Below are positions 1-60,546 of a stretch of 64,000 bases of DNA, in pieces (within the stretch, counting starts at the first letter, position 1; each line of letters starts with the position of its first letter). This stretch comes from Alphaproteobacteria bacterium (lineage in GTDB: Bacteria > Pseudomonadota > Alphaproteobacteria > GCA-2731375). Location: positions 1-64,000 of the forward strand of contig CBDDBZ010000039.1 in the NCBI GenBank assembly GCA_965225945.1. Reading direction: 5' to 3'. A program made the translations under genes and the position numbers. Under the pieces are notes generated by a model. That model saw nothing but the letters and a program-made list of their open reading frames with translations, searched no databases and was not told where the DNA came from.

Positions 1-188
1 TGGGTGACGGCGAGCGCGGTCAGGACGACGAAGAACAGACGGTTGCCGCTCTCGCGCCGCGCCGCCGTGGTGTCGGCCCGCGCCACCGCCATCTTGTATT
101 GCTCCAGCAGGTGCTGGGAGTAGTTCGAGCCGTATTCTTCCGGCGTCTTGTGGACGATCGGTTTTAGAGGCGCCGACGCGTCGCTCAT
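1..188 (-). CDS. 5' part of small membrane protein (mirror copy of 11433-11933, cut by the window edge)
   Basis: Reverse complement of 11433-11620. Confidence 0.8.
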   Translation of the reverse strand, partial: MSDASAPLKPIVHKTPEEYGSNYSQHLLEQYKMAVARADTTAARRESGNRLFFVVLTALAVT

Positions 189-383
189 GTTAGCCCCCGT
201 CGTGGCACACGAACCTCGGGCCGGATATGACCGGGCGAATCGAGGTTCACCGCCGTGAGCATAGCCTTATCGCGACGCATGGAAAACAGTTAGAGTCGGT
301 GCCGAACGCCGCGCCGATGCCGAGGGCTTCCGGCGCGGCGCCATGAGTTGGCGAGAGTGGAAGCGAGTAGCGTGCCCAGAATC

Positions 384-1043
384 ATGAAAGATCCGGTCCA
401 GCGTCATCCGACCCGGACGGAGCAGCTGGATATTCTGACGACCGTCATCCAGGATCTGGTGCCGCCCGGCGGACGGGTGCTGGAGCTCGGCATCGGCAAG
501 GGCTACGTCGCCCATCTGTTGGTGGAGAAGCGGAGCGATTTCCGTCTGGTCGGGGTCGACAAATCGGACGACGCCTTGGCGGAGGCGGAGCGGAACCTCG
601 CCGAGCGGGCTTCGGCACTGACGCTGGTGGCCGGCGATCTCGCCGAGTTCGACACGCTGGCGCTGCCGGAGGGTCCTTATGACGCGATCCTGGCCGCCCT
701 GGTGTTTCACGATCTCGACGACGCGGCGAAGCGGCGCGTGATCGCCGGTGCCGCCGGGTTGCTGGCGCCGGCCGGCATCTTCCTGCTCTACGACCGGGTG
801 CGGCTGACGGAGGCGGCGCTGTTCGAGGCGCAGCGGAGCTTGTGGCGACGGATCGAGCGGGTGCACGGCACCGCCATGCGAACCGCCGAGGACTTCGAGA
901 GCTATCTCGCCGACCTCGGCACCGACAACCGGCCGGCGGCGCTCGCCGAATATGGTCCCTGGTTCGCCGAGGCGGGCCTGTCGATGGCCTGCCTGCATCT
1001 CCACGGCAACGTCGCGCTGCTGGCCGGAGCGCGCGCCCGGTGA
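384..1043 (+). CDS. Class I SAM-dependent methyltransferase (copy 1)
   Basis: VLELGIGKG motif I, LVGVD, YDAILAALVFHDL; start taken at ATG 384. Confidence 0.85.
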   Translation: MKDPVQRHPTRTEQLDILTTVIQDLVPPGGRVLELGIGKGYVAHLLVEKRSDFRLVGVDKSDDALAEAERNLAERASALTLVAGDLAEFDTLALPEGPYDAILAALVFHDLDDAAKRRVIAGAAGLLAPAGIFLLYDRVRLTEAALFEAQRSLWRRIERVHGTAMRTAEDFESYLADLGTDNRPAALAEYGPWFAEAGLSMACLHLHGNVALLAGARAR

Positions 1044-2257
1044 CAGCCGCGGTCGGTGCCAAGGGACGCGACGCCGAAACCATCGGCCTCGTCAGCACGG
1101 GCCATTTCCTCAGCCACTACTATCTGTTCGTGCTGCCGCCGCTGTTTCCGATCATGAAGGAAGCCCTTGGCGTCGGCTATACCGAGCTCGGCCTACTGAT
1201 CACCGCCTTCTCCGTTGGCTCCGGCGTGACGCAGATTCCGGTCGGCTTCCTGGTCGACAGGATCGGCGCTCGAGTCATCCTGATCGGCGGCATCGCGTTG
1301 GAGGCGGCCGCCTTTCTCGTGCTCGGCCTCTCCGGCGTGTATTGGGTCATGCTGGTCTGCATGGCGGTGGCGGGCCTGGCCAACAGCGTCTATCACCCGG
1401 CCGACTACGCGATCCTCTCCGATACGGTGGCGGACGATCGCATGGGCCGGGCATTCTCTATCCACACCTTCTCCGGCTTTTCGGGGAACGCGGTGGCTCC
1501 GCTCGTCGCCGTCGCGCTCGCGCAGGCACTCGGCTGGCAGGCCGCGCCGATCGCCGCCGGCGTGCTGGGCTTCGCGGTCGCCCTCGCCATGCTGGCGCGC
1601 GGCGAGGCGCTCCGAGGGGGCGACATCGCGGCGAACCGCGCCGGACATGGCGCGCGCCAGGGCGGCGAGACGGGCGAGGGTCCCGGCGGCATGGCGCTCT
1701 TGCTGTCGCCGCCGATCCTGATGTGCTTTCTATTCTTCACCATGCTGTCGATGTCGTCGGGTGGTCTCAGCACCCTCGGCGTGTCGGCCCTGGTGACGCT
1801 CTACGAGATCGAACTCACGCCCGCCAACGTGGCGCTGACCGGATTCCTCGCCGCCAGTGCTGTCGGCATCCTCGCCGGCGGGGTGATCGCCGACCGTACC
1901 CGCCGGCACGAGCTGGTGGCGAGCGTGGGTTTTGCCTCGACGGCGGTGATCGTCTTCGTTATCGGCTCGTTTGTCCTGCCGACGCTGCTGATGATCGCGC
2001 TGTTCACGCTGGGCGGCCTGCTCTACGGCATGATCATGCCGTCACGCGACATGCTGGTGCGCGCGGTGACGCCGCCGGGCTCCATGGGCAAGGTGTTCGG
2101 TTTCGTCTCGACCGGCCTCAGCCTCGGCTCGGCGGTGACGCCGATCCTGTTCGGCTGGTTGTTGGATCACGGTGATGCGCGCTGGCTCTTCTGGGGCGCC
2201 TCGGGCTTCATGATTCTTGCCCTCGGCACGGTCTTGCTGGCCAAATCCACGCGGTAG
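1040..2257 (+). CDS. MFS transporter, Fsr-like (copy 1)
   Basis: About 12 hydrophobic segments, GFLVDRIGAR motif A, SVYHP; GTG start overlaps the methyltransferase stop (GTGA). Confidence 0.88.
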   Translation: MTAAVGAKGRDAETIGLVSTGHFLSHYYLFVLPPLFPIMKEALGVGYTELGLLITAFSVGSGVTQIPVGFLVDRIGARVILIGGIALEAAAFLVLGLSGVYWVMLVCMAVAGLANSVYHPADYAILSDTVADDRMGRAFSIHTFSGFSGNAVAPLVAVALAQALGWQAAPIAAGVLGFAVALAMLARGEALRGGDIAANRAGHGARQGGETGEGPGGMALLLSPPILMCFLFFTMLSMSSGGLSTLGVSALVTLYEIELTPANVALTGFLAASAVGILAGGVIADRTRRHELVASVGFASTAVIVFVIGSFVLPTLLMIALFTLGGLLYGMIMPSRDMLVRAVTPPGSMGKVFGFVSTGLSLGSAVTPILFGWLLDHGDARWLFWGASGFMILALGTVLLAKSTR

Positions 2258-2315
2258 TCCCCGGTTGAAAAGTCCTTCGCTTCGCCTCGGAGATAGATCG
2301 CCGGGGCGCTCGGTT

Positions 2316-3619
<1,304 letters not shown>

Positions 3620-3623
<4 letters not shown>

Positions 3624-4171
3624 CCCTCGATGGTCTCGATAGTCAGGTTGTCATTGGTGTAGATGCAGATCTCGGCGGCGATCGCCATCGCGCGCCGCGC
3701 GATGCTCTCGGCGTCATGATCCTCCCGGTCGAACAGCGCGCGGGCGGCGGCCAGCGCGAAGGCGCCGCCGGAGCCGATACCGATCAAGCCGTCCTCCGGC
3801 TCCAGCACGTCCCCGGTGCCGGTCAACATCAGGCTGGTCGTGGCGTCGGCCACCGCCATCATCGCCTCGAGGCGGCGGAGGTAACGGTCGGTGCGCCAAT
3901 CCTTGGCGAGCTCGACCGCCGCCCGGGTGAGGTTGCCGGGATGCTGATCGAGTTTGGCCTCCAGGCGCTCGAAGAGAGTGAAGGCGTCCGCCGTGGCGCC
4001 GGCGAAACCGGCGATCACCTTGCCTTCGCCCAAGCGTCGAACCTTGCGGGCGTTGGATTTTATGACCGTCTGCCCGAAGCTCACCTGGCCGTCGCCGGCG
4101 ACCACCACGCGGTCGTCTTTGCGGACGCTCAGGATTGTCGTGCCGTGGAAAAGGGGCGAGGAATCACTCAC
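3620..4171 (-). CDS. hslV: ATP-dependent protease subunit HslV (copy 1)
   Basis: [43 protein letters not shown]; GTG start. Confidence 0.97.
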
Positions 4172-4243
4172 GCGGTCGTCCCATCGTCGGTTGCGCGCAA
4201 CTCGGCGGAAAGGCGCCGGGCCGGGGGGCCGACGCCCCCCACG

Positions 4244-4271
4244 ATGTAGGCGAAAGCGCCGCTGGGTCAAG
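4244..4271 (-). promoter_or_regulatory. Putative RpoH (sigma32) promoter of hslVU (copy 1)
   Basis: Mirror of 7350-7377: CTTG-N17-CCTACAT. Confidence 0.6.
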
Positions 4272-4352
4272 TCGGTGGGTGCGCCTTGCGCCGGTGGAGG
4301 TTTCGCGAAACTGTCGCCCTCGGCGGCGATCGTGCCGTGCCGAGGGGAGTGA

Positions 4353-5042
4353 GTGGAGATGAACGGCTTCGGGATGCGACGTCGACTCGTGGCGGAAGGC
4401 TTGGGCACGGCGCTCCTTCTGGCGACCGTGGTCGGCTCCGGTATCATGGGGGAGCGGCTGGCCGACGGCAACGTGGCGCTGGCGCTGCTCTGCAACGGAA
4501 TCGCCACCGGTGCGATCCTGATGGTGCTGATCCTGATCTTCGGCCCGATCTCGGGCGGCCATTTCAATCCCGCCGTGACCCTCGCCTTCACCGTCCGGCG
4601 CGAACTCTCGGCCGGTGACGCCGTCGCCTACGTGCTCGCCCAAATCGCCGGCGGAATCGTCGGCGTCGTCGTCGCCCATGTGATGTTCGAGGCCCCTGTC
4701 CTCGCCGCGTCCCTCAACGTGCGGACGGGACCGGCGCAATGGGCGAGTGAATTCGTCGCCACCTTCGGCCTGCTGGCGACGATTCTCGGCTGCCTGCGCT
4801 TCCGCCCCGACGCGGTGCCCTATGCCGTCGGCCTCTTCATTACCGCGGGCTACTGGTTCACCGCCTCCACCTCCTTCGCCAATCCGGCGGTAACGGTGGC
4901 GCGTACGCTGACCGACAGCTTTTCCGGCATCCGGCCGATCGACGCGCCCGGCTTCATCGCCGCCCAGCTCGTCGCCGCCCTCGTCGTCGTCCCGCTCTTT
5001 CGCTGGCTTCATGCCGAGGCGGCGGCGGATCAGTCAAAATAG
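4353..5042 (+). CDS. MIP/aquaporin family channel, AqpS-like (arsenite/metalloid-associated type) (copy 1)
   Basis: GHFNPAVT and [11 protein letters not shown] boxes; [10 protein letters not shown] and [12 protein letters not shown] typical of ars-associated aquaporins. Confidence 0.9.
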
Positions 5043-5340
5043 ACCACGGCACCCGTGTGGATCGAGGCCCGGCAGGCGGACCTGAGCGCCACCAGGCAAT
5101 GGGCGGCGTCGGCATGGGCGCGCCAGGTCGGCGGATGATCCGCCTCCTCCGCGTCCTCGGGCGTCCAAGCTTGCCTATCCGGTTATCACCCACACCCACT
5201 ATATGTAGTGTGTCTCCTTGGACTGCAGGCAAGGGCCGGCGCAGGCGCATTGAGGAGGCGATCCGGCTAATTCTTGATTGTTCTGAAAACCGAACCGGAG
5301 TTTAATTCACGTCACGTACTTAACATCGGGGGACGGAACG

Positions 5341-5649
5341 GTGGCGACCAAGGGAAAAACGAAGAAACCCACGGCCAGACGGGAAGCTGCTGATGAAACG
5401 ACATCGTCTGAGCGATTGACGGCACTAGTCGAAGAAAGCGACGCGCTGGCACGAATCGTTGCGAAGAACCCGTCCGCGCCTGTTAGTCTCCTGCGCGTTT
5501 TGAGTCGCAGCGAAGACGAAGCGACACGCAAGAACGTGATCCTCAATCCGTTTACTTCATATGACGTATTGAGCGAACTTGAAAACCAGTTCACAGAGCT
5601 ATTTGTGAATAATCCGGCACTCGAATCCTACAATTCAATGAAGCTCTGA
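5341..5649 (+). CDS. Passenger ORF with leucine-rich-repeat-variant (LRV/HEAT-like) repeats, possibly truncated
   Basis: Repeated VAKNPSAP..LL..L / NVILNPFTS..VL..L / NNPAL pattern; GTG start after GGGGA. Confidence 0.6.
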   Translation: MATKGKTKKPTARREAADETTSSERLTALVEESDALARIVAKNPSAPVSLLRVLSRSEDEATRKNVILNPFTSYDVLSELENQFTELFVNNPALESYNSMKL

Positions 5650-5796
5650 TTTCCTGGAATATTCCATCGGTGTCGTTCACCTCCGATTTCAGATAAATTT
5701 CAATGAAGTGACGGTCCTTTATGCAACGTGGCGTTTTGCCAAATCCGACTCAATGATTAGGATTTCCACCACGCTAAAGTGTCGCCTAAAAGGCGC

Positions 5797-5908
5797 TACA
5801 ATGCCGTCCGAGTCCCTGCTCGGCATCGCCGGAGATATCTCCGCTTCGACCTGCACCGAGCTTTACTCAGGAAAATGGGTGCACACTACATATAGTGGGT
5901 GTGGGTGA
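5797..5908 (+). pseudogene. Probable C-terminal remnant of an IS1595-family transposase
   Basis: YNAVR/SLLGIAGDISASTCTELYSGKWVHTTYSGCG* (one frameshift) ends inside the right TIR; resembles my recollection of IS1595 transposase tails, unverified. Confidence 0.5.
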
Positions 5909-6403
5909 TAACCGGATAGGCAAGCGTCCAAGATTGCTCGAGGTCGGCGTATTCGTAGTCGACCGGCAGCTCCAAGCGTTCGGCCAGGCGCCGGCATTCG
6001 TCGAGCAGGCGTTGCGCCGAGCCGACGATGTTGCCCGGCACCTCCAGCTCGTCATCGGCGATGATCACGTTCTTGAAGTCGCGCGGCAGATAGAATCCGG
6101 CGGAATCGCCGTGGAACATGAGATGCTGGTAGACCGGCGGACGGCGCCAGACGAAGGAGCTCACGAAGCCGAAGATGCCCGGCGCGATCGGCGCCCCGCC
6201 CCGGTCGTAATAGAGGTCGACGACCCCGTCCTCGTCCTCGTCCGCTTCGCCCGCCTCCGGCGACGAGGCCGGCAAGCCGGCGCTCAGGGCGTCGTGCGCG
6301 GCGATCTGGCGCAACAGATGGAGGTGGGAATGGTCCGCCAGCTCGAGCTGGATGATCGCCTCCTCCGCCAGTTCCTCCGGCTCGTGATGCGGCGCCTGGC
6401 CGG

Positions 6404-6591
6404 AACGCTTGGAGCTGCCGGTCGACTACGAATACGCCGACCTCGAGCAATCTTGGACGCCCGAGGACGCGGAGGAGGCGGATCATCCGCCGACCTGGCG
6501 CGCCCATGCCGACGCCGCCCATTGCCTGGTGGCGCTCAGGTCCGCCTGCCGGGCCTCGATCCACACGGGTGCCGTGGTCTATTTTGACTGA
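6404..6591 (+). pseudogene. 3' fragment of the hypothetical gene (uninterrupted allele, contains the empty target site)
   Basis: LELPVDYEYADLEQSWTPEDAEEADHPPTW...VYFD*. Confidence 0.75.
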
Positions 6592-7268
6592 TCCGCCGCC
6601 GCCTCGGCATGAAGCCAGCGAAAGAGCGGGACGACGACGAGGGCGGCGACGAGCTGGGCGGCGATGAAGCCGGGCGCGTCGATCGGCCGGATGCCGGAAA
6701 AGCTGTCGGTCAGCGTACGCGCCACCGTTACCGCCGGATTGGCGAAGGAGGTGGAGGCGGTGAACCAGTAGCCCGCGGTAATGAAGAGGCCGACGGCATA
6801 GGGCACCGCGTCGGGGCGGAAGCGCAGGCAGCCGAGAATCGTCGCCAGCAGGCCGAAGGTGGCGACGAATTCACTCGCCCATTGCGCCGGTCCCGTCCGC
6901 ACGTTGAGGGACGCGGCGAGGACAGGGGCCTCGAACATCACATGGGCGACGACGACGCCGACGATTCCGCCGGCGATTTGGGCGAGCACGTAGGCGACGG
7001 CGTCACCGGCCGAGAGTTCGCGCCGGACGGTGAAGGCGAGGGTCACGGCGGGATTGAAATGGCCGCCCGAGATCGGGCCGAAGATCAGGATCAGCACCAT
7101 CAGGATCGCACCGGTGGCGATTCCGTTGCAGAGCAGCGCCAGCGCCACGTTGCCGTCGGCCAGCCGCTCCCCCATGATACCGGAGCCGACCACGGTCGCC
7201 AGAAGGAGCGCCGTGCCCAAGCCTTCCGCCACGAGTCGACGTCGCATCCCGAAGCCGTTCATCTCCAC
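6579..7268 (-). CDS. MIP/aquaporin family channel, AqpS-like (copy 2)
   Basis: Identical translation to 4353-5042. Confidence 0.9.
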
Positions 7269-7349
7269 TCACTCCCCTCGGCACGGCACGATCGCCGCCG
7301 AGGGCGACAGTTTCGCGAAACCTCCACCGGCGCAAGGCGCACCCACCGA

Positions 7350-7377
7350 CTTGACCCAGCGGCGCTTTCGCCTACAT
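7350..7377 (+). promoter_or_regulatory. Putative RpoH (sigma32) promoter of hslVU (copy 2)
   Basis: CTTG-17 nt-CCTACAT about 70 nt upstream of hslV, close to the alphaproteobacterial heat-shock consensus CTTG-N17/18-CYTATNT. Confidence 0.6.
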
Positions 7378-7449
7378 CGTGGGGGGCGTCGGCCCCCCGG
7401 CCCGGCGCCTTTCCGCCGAGTTGCGCGCAACCGACGATGGGACGACCGC

Positions 7450-7997
7450 GTGAGTGATTCCTCGCCCCTTTTCCACGGCACGACAATCCTGAGCGTCCGC
7501 AAAGACGACCGCGTGGTGGTCGCCGGCGACGGCCAGGTGAGCTTCGGGCAGACGGTCATAAAATCCAACGCCCGCAAGGTTCGACGCTTGGGCGAAGGCA
7601 AGGTGATCGCCGGTTTCGCCGGCGCCACGGCGGACGCCTTCACTCTCTTCGAGCGCCTGGAGGCCAAACTCGATCAGCATCCCGGCAACCTCACCCGGGC
7701 GGCGGTCGAGCTCGCCAAGGATTGGCGCACCGACCGTTACCTCCGCCGCCTCGAGGCGATGATGGCGGTGGCCGACGCCACGACCAGCCTGATGTTGACC
7801 GGCACCGGGGACGTGCTGGAGCCGGAGGACGGCTTGATCGGTATCGGCTCCGGCGGCGCCTTCGCGCTGGCCGCCGCCCGCGCGCTGTTCGACCGGGAGG
7901 ATCATGACGCCGAGAGCATCGCGCGGCGCGCGATGGCGATCGCCGCCGAGATCTGCATCTACACCAATGACAACCTGACTATCGAGACCATCGAGGG

Positions 7998-8001
<4 letters not shown>
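7450..8001 (+). CDS. hslV: ATP-dependent protease subunit HslV (copy 2)
   Basis: As copy 1. Confidence 0.97.
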
Positions 8002-9305
<1,304 letters not shown>

Positions 9306-9363
9306 AACCGAGCGCCCCGGCGATCTATCTCCGAGGCGAAGCGAAGGACTTTTCAACCGGGGA

Positions 9364-10581
9364 CTACCGCGTGGATTTGGCCAGCAAGACCGTGCAGAGG
9401 GCAAGAATCATGAAGCCCGAGGCGCCCCAGAAGAGCCAGCGCGCATCACCGTGATCCAACAACCAGCCGAACAGGATCGGCGTCACCGCCGAGCCGAGGC
9501 TGAGGCCGGTCGAGACGAAACCGAACACCTTGCCCATGGAGCCCGGCGGCGTCACCGCGCGCACCAGCATGTCGCGTGACGGCATGATCATGCCGTAGAG
9601 CAGGCCGCCCAGCGTGAACAGCGCGATCATCAGCAGCGTCGGCAGGACAAACGAGCCGATAACGAAGACGATCACCGCCGTCGAGGCAAAACCCACGCTC
9701 GCCACCAGCTCGTGCCGGCGGGTACGGTCGGCGATCACCCCGCCGGCGAGGATGCCGACAGCACTGGCGGCGAGGAATCCGGTCAGCGCCACGTTGGCGG
9801 GCGTGAGTTCGATCTCGTAGAGCGTCACCAGGGCCGACACGCCGAGGGTGCTGAGACCACCCGACGACATCGACAGCATGGTGAAGAATAGAAAGCACAT
9901 CAGGATCGGCGGCGACAGCAAGAGCGCCATGCCGCCGGGACCCTCGCCCGTCTCGCCGCCCTGGCGCGCGCCATGTCCGGCGCGGTTCGCCGCGATGTCG
10001 CCCCCTCGGAGCGCCTCGCCGCGCGCCAGCATGGCGAGGGCGACCGCGAAGCCCAGCACGCCGGCGGCGATCGGCGCGGCCTGCCAGCCGAGTGCCTGCG
10101 CGAGCGCGACGGCGACGAGCGGAGCCACCGCGTTCCCCGAAAAGCCGGAGAAGGTGTGGATAGAGAATGCCCGGCCCATGCGATCGTCCGCCACCGTATC
10201 GGAGAGGATCGCGTAGTCGGCCGGGTGATAGACGCTGTTGGCCAGGCCCGCCACCGCCATGCAGACCAGCATGACCCAATACACGCCGGAGAGGCCGAGC
10301 ACGAGAAAGGCGGCCGCCTCCAACGCGATGCCGCCGATCAGGATGACTCGAGCGCCGATCCTGTCGACCAGGAAGCCGACCGGAATCTGCGTCACGCCGG
10401 AGCCAACGGAGAAGGCGGTGATCAGTAGGCCGAGCTCGGTATAGCCGACGCCAAGGGCTTCCTTCATGATCGGAAACAGCGGCGGCAGCACGAACAGATA
10501 GTAGTGGCTGAGGAAATGGCCCGTGCTGACGAGGCCGATGGTTTCGGCGTCGCGTCCCTTGGCACCGACCGCGGCTGTCAC
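9364..10581 (-). CDS. MFS transporter, Fsr-like (copy 2)
   Basis: As copy 1 with one G/C amino-acid difference near the C-terminus. Confidence 0.88.
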   Translation of the reverse strand: MTAAVGAKGRDAETIGLVSTGHFLSHYYLFVLPPLFPIMKEALGVGYTELGLLITAFSVGSGVTQIPVGFLVDRIGARVILIGGIALEAAAFLVLGLSGVYWVMLVCMAVAGLANSVYHPADYAILSDTVADDRMGRAFSIHTFSGFSGNAVAPLVAVALAQALGWQAAPIAAGVLGFAVALAMLARGEALRGGDIAANRAGHGARQGGETGEGPGGMALLLSPPILMCFLFFTMLSMSSGGLSTLGVSALVTLYEIELTPANVALTGFLAASAVGILAGGVIADRTRRHELVASVGFASTAVIVFVIGSFVLPTLLMIALFTLGGLLYGMIMPSRDMLVRAVTPPGSMGKVFGFVSTGLSLGSAVTPILFGWLLDHGDARWLFWGASGFMILALCTVLLAKSTR

Positions 10582-11237
10582 CGGGCGCGCGCTCCGGCCA
10601 GCAGCGCGACGTTGCCGTGGAGATGCAGGCAGGCCATCGACAGGCCCGCCTCGGCGAACCAGGGACCATATTCGGCGAGCGCCGCCGGCCGGTTGTCGGT
10701 GCCGAGGTCGGCGAGATAGCTCTCGAAGTCCTCGGCGGTTCGCATGGCGGTGCCGTGCACCCGCTCGATCCGTCGCCACAAGCTCCGCTGCGCCTCGAAC
10801 AGCGCCGCCTCCGTCAGCCGCACCCGGTCGTAGAGCAGGAAGATGCCGGCCGGCGCCAGCAACCCGGCGGCACCGGCGATCACGCGCCGCTTCGCCGCGT
10901 CGTCGAGATCGTGAAACACCAGGGCGGCCAGGATCGCGTCATAAGGACCCTCCGGCAGCGCCAGCGTGTCGAACTCGGCGAGATCGCCGGCCACCAGCGT
11001 CAGCGCCGAAGCCCGCTCGGCGAGGTTCCGCTCCGCCTCCACCAAGGCGTCGTCCGATTTGTCGACCCCGACCAGACGGAAATCGCTCCGCTTCTCCACC
11101 AACAGATGGGCGACGTAGCCCTTGCCGATGCCGAGCTCCAGCACCCGTCCGCCGGGCGGCACCAGATCCTGGATGACGGTCGTCAGAATATCCAGCTGCT
11201 CCGTCCGGGTCGGATGACGCTGGACCGGATCTTTCAT
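10578..11237 (-). CDS. Class I SAM-dependent methyltransferase (copy 2)
   Basis: As copy 1 with one A/V difference. Confidence 0.85.
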   Translation of the reverse strand: MKDPVQRHPTRTEQLDILTTVIQDLVPPGGRVLELGIGKGYVAHLLVEKRSDFRLVGVDKSDDALVEAERNLAERASALTLVAGDLAEFDTLALPEGPYDAILAALVFHDLDDAAKRRVIAGAAGLLAPAGIFLLYDRVRLTEAALFEAQRSLWRRIERVHGTAMRTAEDFESYLADLGTDNRPAALAEYGPWFAEAGLSMACLHLHGNVALLAGARAR

Positions 11238-11432
11238 GATTCTGGGCACGCTACTCGCTTCCACTCTCGCCAACTCATGGCGCCGCGCCGGAAGCCCTCG
11301 GCATCGGCGCGGCGTTCGGCACCGACTCTAACTGTTTTCCATGCGTCGCGATAAGGCTATGCTCACGGCGGTGAACCTCGATTCGCCCGGTCATATCCGG
11401 CCCGAGGTTCGTGTGCCACGACGGGGGCTAAC

Positions 11433-11933
11433 ATGAGCGACGCGTCGGCGCCTCTAAAACCGATCGTCCACAAGACGCCGGAAGAATACGGCTCGAACTA
11501 CTCCCAGCACCTGCTGGAGCAATACAAGATGGCGGTGGCGCGGGCCGACACCACGGCGGCGCGGCGCGAGAGCGGCAACCGTCTGTTCTTCGTCGTCCTG
11601 ACCGCGCTCGCCGTCACCCACTCGATCGGCGTCGGCGCGCAGTTGAGCACGCTGGTACCGCTGCTCGGCTCCTACATTTGCGTCGGCTGGTTGGTTTTCG
11701 TCTGGAGCCGCTCGAAGATGAACTTCTCGACCTTCGCCGTGATCCGGGAAATCGAGCAGAAGCTCCCCGCCCGCCTGTTCGAGGGCGAGCGGGAGCGGCG
11801 ATTGGCCGAACAGGGCCAGACGGCGCAGCTCATGGCGGTGAGCTGGTTCGAGCTGATGATGCCGATCCTCTTCGCGCTGCTGTTCATGCTGCTGCTGCTC
11901 TGGAATCTCTTGGCCCCCGACTCTAGGGCATGA
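11433..11933 (+). CDS. Small integral membrane protein, RipA-like octameric membrane protein family
   Basis: LLEQYKM...AD...RR...N..FF, three hydrophobic helices, F.VIREIE..LP...F..E pattern; family name from recollection. Confidence 0.6.
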   Translation: MSDASAPLKPIVHKTPEEYGSNYSQHLLEQYKMAVARADTTAARRESGNRLFFVVLTALAVTHSIGVGAQLSTLVPLLGSYICVGWLVFVWSRSKMNFSTFAVIREIEQKLPARLFEGERERRLAEQGQTAQLMAVSWFELMMPILFALLFMLLLLWNLLAPDSRA

Positions 11934-11956: not shown

Positions 11957-12010
11957 CCACCCGCTCCCCCGCCCCACCATCCCGTGGGGGTTGAGCGGGG
12001 GAGCGGGTGG
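11957..12010. repeat. GC-rich hairpin (16-bp perfect stem), terminator- or REP-like
   Basis: CCACCCGCTCCCCCGC (11957-11972) pairs with GCGGGGGAGCGGGTGG (11995-12010); no U-tract. Confidence 0.6.
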
Positions 12011-58105: not shown

Positions 58106-60316
58106 TTACTTCACGGTTATCTCGGTGATGGCGCTCCAGTTTTCCGGCGGCGGTCGGGCCATGTAGCGCCAGCAGCGGTCGAGGTAGATCTGCGTCGGGC
58201 GATCGTTCGGATTGCACCCGAGGGCCTCGGTGAAGCGCTCCGCCCCCTGCCGCCATTGGCGCTGGCGATAAAGCCGCCGGCCCTCGGCGAAGGCGGCGAG
58301 CGCCTCGTCCAGGCGGGGAAAACTCGCCTCGGTGTGGTGATCGAGAATCTCATGGAGCATGATCGGCCGCTCGCGCCCCGGCACGCGGACGCGGTCGATC
58401 TCCCGGTAGCGCCAATCGGCCTTGAGGCGGGCGAGGGTATCCTCGCTCACCAGGATTCTGGTGCCGTAATACTTGTTGGCGCCCTCGATTCGGCTGGCGA
58501 CGTTCACGTGATCGCCGATCACGGTGTAGTCCATCCGCCTCGGCGAGCCGATGGTGCCGGCCACGACGGGGCCGGAGTCGATGCCGACGCCGATGACGAT
58601 TTGCTCGCCGCGCTCGGCCTGCATTCGGGCGTTGAAGTCCTTCAGTTGGACCAGCATCTCGACCGCCGTGGCGACGGCGTTGTCGGCATCCTCGGGTCCC
58701 TGGAAGGGGGCACCGAACACGGCCATGAGCGCGTCGCCGATGAACTTGTCGAGCGTGCCCCCATGCTTGAAGACGATGTCGACCATGGTGGTGAAATATC
58801 GGTTCAGAATCTCCACCATTTCCCGCGCGTCGAGCCGTTCCGAAAGGCTGGAGAACTCGCGGATGTCGGAGAAAAAGATCGCCGCTTCCTGACTGGTGCC
58901 GCGCAGCATGGCCTCCTCGTTGTCGAGCAAGCGCTCGACGACGCTGTCGGACATGAAGCGGACCATGGTCCCCTTGATCCGCTTCTCGCGGGTGATGTCC
59001 TCGAGGATCAACATGCAGCCGGCGCCACCACCCAGGGGAACCGTCGTCAGGTTGACCGAGATCGCCTCCTCGGCGCCGACGTCGAGTTCGTGGTCGAGCT
59101 CGATGCCCGAGCCGCCGGTCGCGATCGTCTCCCGTAGGCGGGAGACGATGGCCTCGTTCCCCGGCCAAAGGTTGCGAGCGGCGAGACCCTCGACCGCCCC
59201 CTGCAATCGCAGGATCGCGCGGGCCGCCGGGTTGGCCATGGTGACCTGGAGCTCGCGATCGAAGGTGACGACGCCGTTGGAGAGGTTTTCGAGAATGTTC
59301 TCGTTGAAGTTCTTGGCGTCGATCACCTCTTGTTGGGCGCGCCGCTCCTCGGTGACGTCGCGGCCGTAGAGGTTGACGTAGTCGGCCCCCGCCACCGGCG
59401 TCAGCGCGAAGACGAAGGTCCGCTCGCCGCTGTGGAATTCGGCGAAACTGTTCTCCTCGGCGGCGCCGGCGGCGATCACAACGTCGCGCAATTCCCTCGC
59501 CAGCGCCGCGCCGTCGATCAAGCCGGAAAGCCGTCGTCCGGCCTGGTTGGAGAACAGCACCTCGCCGTCGCGGTGGACGCGCAGCACCGGGTTCGGATTT
59601 TCCTCCGGGAACTTGGCGAGGTCGTGCACCTCGCGAAGCGCGCGCCGCTCCTCCGTCACGTCGCGGCCGTAGAGGTTGACGTAGTCGGCCCCCGCTACCG
59701 GCGTCAGGGCGAAGACGAAGATGCGATCGCCGGCTTCGAACTCGGCGACGCGGTTGGCGCCCTCGCCGTAGGCCTCGCTCACCTGGGCGGCGAGCGCCGG
59801 GTCGAGCACGCCCGCGTCGAGCAGCCCCGGGAGTCGCCGGCCGGCCTGGTTCGAGAACAACACCCCGCCGTCACCGGCAACGCGCAGCACCGGGTTCGGG
59901 TTCTCCTCGGGGAACTTGGCGAGATCGCGCACCTCGCGGAGCGCGCGCCGCTCCTCCGTCACGTCGCGGCCGTAGAGGTTGACGTAACCGGCGCCCTCCA
60001 CCGGCGTCAGGGCGAAGACGAAAATCCGCTCCTCGCTCTCGAATTCGGCGAAGCGGTTGGCGCCTTCGCCGTCGGCCCGGGCGACTTCCTCCCGCAGTGA
60101 TGTGGTCAACGCCTCGCCGTCGAGCAATCCCGACAGTCGCCGCGCCGCGCCGTTCGAGAACACCACCGCGCCGTCGCCGGCGACGCGCAGCACGGGGTTC
60201 GGGTTCTCCTCCGGAAAGGTGGAGAGGTCCATTCCGCTCGGCGTGGTCTTGGCCCGGCGCGCGGCGAGCCGGCTTGCGCCGCGCTCCGAAGCATCTCGGT
60301 CGGACGCGCGATTCAT
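58106..60316 (-). CDS. Soluble class III adenylate/guanylate cyclase with 3 tandem PAS-like repeats, a further PAS and a C-terminal TPR-like tail (alternative start 60232)
   Basis: FPEENPNPVLRV x3; FSDIREFS, DKFIGDALMAVFGAP, YTVIGDHVNVASRIE. Confidence 0.92.
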   Translation of the reverse strand: MNRASDRDASERGASRLAARRAKTTPSGMDLSTFPEENPNPVLRVAGDGAVVFSNGAARRLSGLLDGEALTTSLREEVARADGEGANRFAEFESEERIFVFALTPVEGAGYVNLYGRDVTEERRALREVRDLAKFPEENPNPVLRVAGDGGVLFSNQAGRRLPGLLDAGVLDPALAAQVSEAYGEGANRVAEFEAGDRIFVFALTPVAGADYVNLYGRDVTEERRALREVHDLAKFPEENPNPVLRVHRDGEVLFSNQAGRRLSGLIDGAALARELRDVVIAAGAAEENSFAEFHSGERTFVFALTPVAGADYVNLYGRDVTEERRAQQEVIDAKNFNENILENLSNGVVTFDRELQVTMANPAARAILRLQGAVEGLAARNLWPGNEAIVSRLRETIATGGSGIELDHELDVGAEEAISVNLTTVPLGGGAGCMLILEDITREKRIKGTMVRFMSDSVVERLLDNEEAMLRGTSQEAAIFFSDIREFSSLSERLDAREMVEILNRYFTTMVDIVFKHGGTLDKFIGDALMAVFGAPFQGPEDADNAVATAVEMLVQLKDFNARMQAERGEQIVIGVGIDSGPVVAGTIGSPRRMDYTVIGDHVNVASRIEGANKYYGTRILVSEDTLARLKADWRYREIDRVRVPGRERPIMLHEILDHHTEASFPRLDEALAAFAEGRRLYRQRQWRQGAERFTEALGCNPNDRPTQIYLDRCWRYMARPPPENWSAITEITVK
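59309..60217 (-). repeat. Three intragenic 303-bp tandem repeat units
   Basis: The Phe codon of FPEENP starts at 60217, 59914 and 59611 (spacing 303). Confidence 0.9.
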
Positions 60317-60469: not shown

Positions 60470-60546
60470 GCGCCCGTAGCTCAGTCGGATAGAGCACTTG
60501 ATTCCTAATCAAGGGGTCGCAGGTTCGAGTCCTGCCGGGCGCGCCA
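60470..60546 (+). tRNA. tRNA-Arg (anticodon CCT)
   Basis: GCGCCCG acceptor stem, CTTGA-TTCCTAA-TCAAG anticodon arm, GGTTCGAGTCC T-arm, encoded CCA; 77 nt. Confidence 0.97.

Follow-up and report, generated by a model that had tools for sequence, protein, structure and literature searches.

A probable transposase-less insertion cassette with IS1595-type ends and an LRV-repeat open reading frame as cargo

Transporter IS (tIS) of the IS1595 family were reportedly described by Siguier et al. in 2009. In a tIS, a passenger gene lies within IS1595-family ends and the element retains its own transposase. The MIC231 elements take another form: they derive from an insertion sequence (IS) of the IS4 family, and their cargo is an enzyme or a resistance gene. 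Mobile insertion cassettes (MICs) as a class are defined in PMC3129680, which names the IS231-MIC231 elements of Bacillus cereus and states that a cognate transposase can activate MICs. According to PMC8101967, flanking duplications of 8 bp, one transposase gene, a zinc finger at the N terminus, and the domain DDE_Tnp_IS1595 are usual among IS1595-family members.

Here, we describe a cassette found in a 64,000-nucleotide stretch of DNA, which we refer to as the window. Our main reading, to which we give a probability of roughly 0.8, is that window positions 5170 to 5924 hold a non-autonomous mobile insertion cassette that derives from an ISAcr1-like IS of the IS1595 family and keeps an LRV-repeat open reading frame (ORF) as a working protein. 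Transposase-less passenger cassettes are rarely annotated, and on this reading the IS1595 family also yields such cassettes.

An insertion in one arm of an inverted duplication

The cassette is an insert of 755 bp with a GC content of 51%, set within surroundings of 67 to 69% GC. Its GC fraction of 0.510 compares with 0.687 for the whole window and 0.674 for positions 1 to 5169, and 300-nt windows inside the cassette fall as low as 0.457 to 0.48. The insert is bounded by terminal inverted repeats (TIRs) of 43 bp, a left repeat (IRL) at 5170 to 5212 on the plus strand and a right repeat (IRR) at 5882 to 5924 on the minus strand, which are complementary at 43 of 43 positions. Allowing up to 3 mismatches, the 43-mer occurs at 2 places only in the window, and none of 100 shuffles contained any match. 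Identical 8-bp flanks, CGTCCAAG, form a left copy at 5162 to 5169 and a right copy at 5925 to 5932; because this target site duplication (TSD) directly borders both ends, the length of the cassette is 755 bp. An Rfam search of positions 4800 to 6700 returned no match.

The gene that received the insertion lies on the minus strand (5030 to 6404) and reads from 6404 down to 5933 and then from 5169 to 5030. We compared it with its homolog P0267, a protein of 211 aa, to which it is 60% identical over the main tblastn stretch. Positions 6404 down to 5925 correspond to residues 14 to 170 of P0267, and positions 5167 to 5033 correspond to residues 169 to 211. This break in the alignment therefore places the cassette at about codon 170 of approximately 211. 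P0267 was the only close homolog of the host gene in the length band that we searched. The first ~13 codons of the gene are removed by the junction of an inverted repeat, and the window holds no intact copy: the cassette interrupts one, which also has no start, and of the other only a C-terminal stub is present.

Filled and empty target sites stand side by side here because window positions 1 to 5981 are an inverted copy of positions 6403 to 11620. With the cassette and one TSD copy left out, positions 1 to 5169 plus 5933 to 5981 are the reverse complement of 6403 to 11620. The left arm, cassette excluded, runs from 1 to 5993 and extends past the window start, and the right arm runs from 6390 to 11620. 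Apart from the cassette, the two arms differ over 5218 nt by 4 substitutions: 3 are transitions and 1 is a transversion, and 2 of the 4 are synonymous changes at third codon positions, one in hslU and one in a methyltransferase gene. The empty site, with the 8-mer present once at 6452 to 6459, lies in the other arm of the duplication; it is an exact reverse-strand match, and its flanks match both sides of the insert. With the filled and empty alleles only 0.08% apart over 5.2 kb, the insertion is therefore recent, whichever reading of the duplication is adopted. The locus offers a near-isogenic filled/empty pair for the study of target choice.

At the junction between the arms (6402/6403), we found a 13-nt inverted microhomology (5981 to 5993 and 6390 to 6402) with one extra G and a loop of 396 nt. 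A template switch yields a structure of this kind, whether it happens inside a cell or gives rise to a chimeric molecule or read. We judge the odds to be a little better than even that the filled and empty sites do not belong to one genome, and that the first ~6 kb represent a second strain haplotype, mis-joined in inverted orientation via a template-switch chimeric molecule or read. The inverted repeat continues beyond the start of the window, and the junction falls inside the host gene, where it removes the start of the gene and sits at the microhomology with a 1-nt slip. The arms, with nothing but the cassette and 4 substitutions between them and half of the latter synonymous, resemble two natural haplotypes, a pattern that a duplication within a single genome would fit slightly less well than a mis-join of co-existing strains. 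A true inverted duplication that arose in vivo by template switching would look alike, however, and the 396-nt loop would make the inverted structure tolerable in a cell.

An earlier note, made from the letters of this DNA alone, had described a lower-GC insert of 755 bp with perfect 43-bp TIRs and an 8-bp duplication, and the coordinates, the complementarity of the repeats, and the GC values confirm each of these. It had also described an interrupted coding sequence, which is present, and its uninterrupted allele at 6404 to 6591, which is not a whole one: that segment holds only the C-terminal ~65 codons and lies inside the 5.2-kb inverted duplicate. The filled and empty sites that it placed side by side are found in the window as described, but they may owe their adjacency to a mis-join of two strain haplotypes and not to one genome.

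The inverted duplication contains hslU, hslV, an aquaporin-like gene, an MFS transporter gene, and a methyltransferase gene. Two further features of the window lie outside it. A 730-aa ORF at 12007 to 14199 matches the alpha (residues 80 to 393) and beta (residues 408 to 729) subunits of pyruvate dehydrogenase E1 and, judging from these matches, may be a fused alpha-beta E1. A tandem repeat at 59337 to 60229 comprises 2.9 copies of a 303-nt unit with 79% matching; its period is divisible by three, and it may therefore be a repeated protein domain.

Insertion sequence origin of the ends

The first 15 nt of the cassette are identical to both ends of ISAcr1 as found in Acidiphilium cryptum pACRY02 (L001). 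In that plasmid, ISAcr1 is 1080 bp long and has an 8-bp TSD, and its transposase of 338 aa contains the domains DDE_Tnp_IS1595 (E value of 5e-40) and Zn_ribbon_IS1595. When we compared the cassette with plasmids by blastn, 11 records matched, none of them covering 80% of the query, and in 8 of the 11 the match fell under genes annotated as an IS1595-family or "IS1595-like element ISAcr1" transposase. The plasmid matches were to IS ends only, and blastn found no full cassette in the plasmids. A phage collection searched with both DNA and protein gave no match.

We also scanned genome contigs with a pattern derived from the TIR and obtained at least 61 loci; the window's own locus is not among the matches listed. 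Most loci among the matches listed are IS copies of 1080 to 1158 bp. Identical 8-bp flanks border 36 of the 50 end pairs in the fetched loci among those matches, a set that includes 3 duplicates from overlapping loci as well as the window's own pair.

Comparison with these full copies defines what the cassette has kept. On its right side, the cassette becomes homologous to full IS copies at the DNA level from about element nt 630, and the remnant of the 3' end of a transposase gene occupies 5799 to 5908 on the plus strand. The transposase of one full copy, L056, produced a single match to the window, in which its residues 307 to 338 align to positions 5810 to 5905 with 65.6% identity. These are the last 32 codons of the gene, and the stop codon that follows (5906 to 5908) lies within the IRR, as the transposase stop lies within the right repeat of ISAcr1. 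On the left side, homology to the transposase-start side of the subfamily represented by L004, L041, L046, and L058 extends as far as element nt 66, 23 nt beyond the repeat; this remnant of the IS leader, inside the IRL, spans 5213 to 5235 on the plus strand. The IS-derived parts of the cassette amount to the left 66 nt and the right ~125 nt. With leader homology at the left and the transposase relic at the right, both natural IS ends are therefore retained. We also considered that both cassette ends might be copies of an IS right end (41/43 versus 36/42 matches to L056), and we rejected this because, up to nt 66 and with the leader included, the left end resembles the left side of the other subfamily.

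Between the retained ends, ~560 bp of foreign DNA (5236 to 5798) has taken the place of a segment that began shortly before the transposase start and extended to about codon 306. The zinc ribbon and the domain DDE_Tnp_IS1595, both present in full relatives, are absent from the cassette. Because only 32 C-terminal transposase codons are left, the cassette is a derivative of the IS1595 family and not an autonomous member of it. The link to IS1595 that had been proposed beforehand thus holds, supported by the 15-nt identity with the ISAcr1 ends, the 8-bp duplication, and the 32-codon relic. We take ISAcr1 to belong to the ISSod11 group of the IS1595 family, and the ends of the cassette presumably fit the end consensus of that group, nnnGcnTATC. 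Separately, the window contains a tRNA-Arg (CCT) gene at 60470 to 60546, and a 96% match of the window to L004 is due to this gene.

The LRV-type cargo

The foreign DNA begins with 5236 to 5340 (plus strand), which contains a purine-rich GGGGGA 9 nt before a GTG start codon. This start opens an ORF of 102 aa at 5341 to 5649 (stop codon included), also on the plus strand, in the orientation of the lost transposase gene. A non-coding "tail" follows on the same strand at 5650 to 5798; elsewhere, IS1595-type transposase sequence, and not the LRV ORF, precedes this tail. Against Pfam, the ORF scored 34.1 bits for LRV_2 (PF25591), above the cut-off of 27 (E value of 2.6e-8), and 19.4 bits for LRV (PF01816), below the cut-off of 21.6. 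NCBIfam holds no family for either the ORF or the host-gene fragment. The earlier note had reported a 102-aa ORF with LRV similarity and no intact transposase; the ORF is there and passes the LRV_2 cut-off, and the transposase is reduced to its 32-codon relic.

To place the ORF among its relatives, we considered 251 candidates, of which 234 matched at an E value of ≤0.001. The best 120 of these 234 share 74 to 99% identity with the ORF, most of them also carry PF25591, and 85 of the 120 are exactly 102 aa long. The family is abundant: by a hand sum, the best 120 of the 234 clusters contain about 1,000 member sequences. Contigs shorter than 4 kb are the sole source for 93 of these 120 clusters, the effect that a repeated element has on short-read assembly, and many metagenome assemblies are therefore probably interrupted by the element. 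In an alignment of 98 sequences, 606 inferred replacements were distributed very unevenly over the sites (dispersion of 3.8; chi-square P = 3e-35): repeat positions occupied by Asn-Pro and Leu are almost invariant, and variation is greatest in the basic N-terminal tail. This pattern, read at the protein level from predicted intact ORFs and with some ascertainment bias, points to constraint on a folded protein.

An AlphaFold model, a check that had been proposed for this ORF, contains seven short helices over residues 23 to 100, with pLDDT values of 83 to 88 over residues 51 to 100 and disorder over residues 1 to 32. Its mean pLDDT is moderate, at 67.8, and it has no significant neighbor in the PDB: a structure search gave 43 matches, none at an E value of ≤0.001, and the best hit of the ORF profile to PDB sequences had an E value of 0.67.

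More distant relatives are much larger. A profile search retrieved 5301 representative proteins at an E value of ≤0.001, mostly of 400 to 2200 aa with many LRV repeats, and the main content of the 16 distant relatives that we scanned was LRV, LRV_2, and HEAT repeats. Among 134 long relatives, 97 have their best match to the cassette ORF beginning within residues 1 to 40, with 39 to 53% identity, and three LRV proteins from cyanobacterial plasmids likewise match the ORF at their N termini. The ORF aligns as a whole to the N-terminal ~95 residues of large LRV proteins and ends mid-repeat, and no further LRV repeats were found 3' of it in six frames. Because of these N-terminal matches and the mid-repeat end, the cargo resembles the 5' portion of a large LRV gene, which would since have been maintained as a mini-protein.

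The same features bear on a possible but unlikely alternative, in which the element is just as mobile and the ORF is an inert captured fragment of the 5' end of a gene. The cassette would then be a MITE-like remnant, and the apparent conservation would stem from recent bursts together with the prediction of intact ORFs only. An ORF that ends mid-repeat and equals the N terminus of much larger proteins agrees with this, as do the many close copies that are broken, frameshifted, or interrupted (P0013, P0015, P0020, P0026, P0031, P0071, P0089, and P0119) and the fact that no sigma-70-like promoter was found upstream of the ORF (5236 to 5340). An inert fragment is harder to reconcile with a length of exactly 102 aa that is still seen in relatives down to 74 to 75% identity, with replacements that avoid the residues defining the repeats, and with stand-alone relatives of 102 to 104 aa that exist at 52 to 65% identity. 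Because its length and repeat residues are conserved, we favor the reading that the ORF is kept as a working module, probably an alpha-helical one that binds protein.

That a non-autonomous element encodes a conserved protein prompts the question of whether the gene serves the hitch-hiker's own benefit or that of the host. We consider it distinctly unlikely, if worth stating, that the LRV mini-protein is an element-encoded factor that promotes the spread or retention of the cassette itself, as opposed to passive cargo. The idea arises because the ORF has taken the transposase's place behind the IS leader and because its length and repeat residues are kept across more than 200 sequence clusters. 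Such a factor could engage the transposase of the parent IS or a host factor, or it could act as a dominant N-terminal fragment against the giant LRV proteins of the host. A predicted complex of the L056 transposase and the LRV protein scored 0.01, which is evidence neither way. If the mini-protein did act in this manner, the cassette would parasitize an IS and bring along a helper gene of its own.

Other copies, mobility, and comparison with known elements

We found further copies of the cassette in two other genome bins. L032 (JAKZRK010000112.1) contains element nt 1 to 247 at 99.2% identity, ORF start included, and L012 (JAKZSU010000171.1) contains element nt 616 to 755 at 99.3% identity. 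Both have flanks different from those in the window, and each copy is ended by a contig end. Among predicted proteins, P0006 continues across the same TIR into other flanking sequence, and P0070 records one cassette copy inserted within the ORF of another; several others with upstream starts represent truncations or insertions by other IS. Copies at several different sites (the window, L032, and L012, plus the flanks of P0006 and P0070) are in keeping with a MIC.

A search with the L056 transposase revealed no source of transposase in the 64-kb window, and no full IS with ends identical to those of the cassette is present among the matches listed (at least 61 loci). The closest full IS among them is L056, which matches at 41/43 positions at one end only and whose C terminus is 66% identical to the relic. 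Ends of a related IS subfamily occur in L032's own bin (L004, L022, L046, and L058, among the matches listed). That the cassette is a dead relic, no longer able to move, we regard as very improbable: it would account for the absence of a transposase from the window and of a listed partner with identical ends, but the TIRs are perfect, the TSD is intact, the empty allele is only 4 substitutions away in 5.2 kb, copies that are 99% identical sit at other sites in other bins, and L032's bin holds the related full-length IS ends.

The TIR search suggested in the earlier note thus recovered other copies, at 99% identity and at other sites, but not an autonomous partner with identical ends among the matches listed. 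The note had staked its reading on the existence of other TIR copies and on the LRV similarity of the ORF, and both were found; a recently mobilized mini-transposon that spreads an LRV-type module is accordingly a supported description of the locus.

The scan also turned up relatives that carry no such cargo. Deletion derivatives with perfect 8-bp duplications measure 288 bp (9745 to 10032 in both L005 and L054) and 357 bp (9676 to 10032 in L041). Facing IS ends only 109 bp apart (L018, 39 to 147) and 64 bp apart (L029, 9969 to 10032), both without matching duplications, may be abutting or rearranged ends. Two longer loci, L025 (9998 to 12178; 2181 bp) and L045 (9998 to 13262; 3265 bp), were considered as cargo carriers and rejected. 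They are ISAcr1-like copies with intact outer 8-bp duplications and nested elements, IS630-like in L025 and IS21-like (istA/istB-like) in L045, labels that come from ORF reading and not from a family scan.

The tail of the cassette also occurs in other company. P0270 matches window positions 5645 to 5905 at 98.9%, and in P0270, P0272, and P0275 the translated 3' tail of the cassette (from ~5645) is joined to an IS1595-type transposase and not to the LRV ORF. P0272 contains PF12762; over 48 residues, its transposase part shares 48% identity with the L056 transposase, and it is only 33 to 37% identical to plasmid IS1595 transposases. In P0275, the tail is joined to an ISAcr1-like transposase from about residue 220 onward, with 75% identity. 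Judging from these joins, the three may stem from sibling elements, intermediates, or nested insertions.

We propose the following model for the cassette. The transposase gene of an ISAcr1-like IS has been replaced, between the retained ends, by lower-GC foreign DNA carrying the LRV ORF. A zinc-ribbon/DDE transposase, supplied by a full-length relative of this IS present in the same cell, would bind the 43-bp repeats and, acting in trans, would move the cassette and make the 8-bp staggered cut in the target. The ORF would probably be transcribed from the IS's own leader, and its conserved length and repeat residues would reflect its retention as a working module.

Within the limited library that we searched, we found no literature that links LRV proteins with insertion sequences and none that describes such an IS1595 cassette. 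This agrees with the earlier note, whose author knew of no description of the cargo.

The ISAcr1-like IS are among the nearest known elements. They share with the cassette the terminal 15 nt, similar 43-bp repeats (41/43 to one end of L056), the 8-bp duplication, and a transposase stop within the right repeat, and the cassette retains the last 32 codons of their gene. It differs from them in having no transposase, in its length (755 bp versus 1080 to 1158 bp), and in its foreign ORF; moreover, full copies have non-identical ends (79% over 48 nt in ISAcr1), whereas the two repeats of the cassette are identical. The MITE-like derivatives of 288 bp (L005 and L054) and 357 bp (L041) have the same type of ends and 8-bp duplications and are likewise non-autonomous, but they are plain internal deletions without foreign DNA. 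With 755 bp and a conserved 102-aa ORF, the cassette is therefore not a strict MITE. A tIS resembles it in having a passenger gene inside IS1595-family ends; because a tIS keeps its transposase and the cassette has none, the cassette is not a tIS.

In contrast to MIC231, the cassette derives from an IS1595-family IS and not from an IS4-family one, and its cargo is a small repeat protein in place of an enzyme or resistance gene. Its likeness to MICs in general, as PMC3129680 defines them, lies in IS-type inverted repeats around a passenger gene unrelated to transposition, in the lack of a transposase, and in mobilization in trans by the transposase of a cognate IS, which is presumed here by analogy. 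The cargo, in turn, resembles the large LRV proteins, to whose N-terminal ~95 residues the whole ORF aligns with 39 to 53% identity. Those proteins are 240 to 2200 aa long, whereas the ORF encodes 102 aa with about three repeats inside a mobile element, and because it contains no cysteine, it is without an Fe-S domain. The kind of element is thus a known one, the passenger cassette, and an LRV cargo within IS1595 ends is a new example of it.
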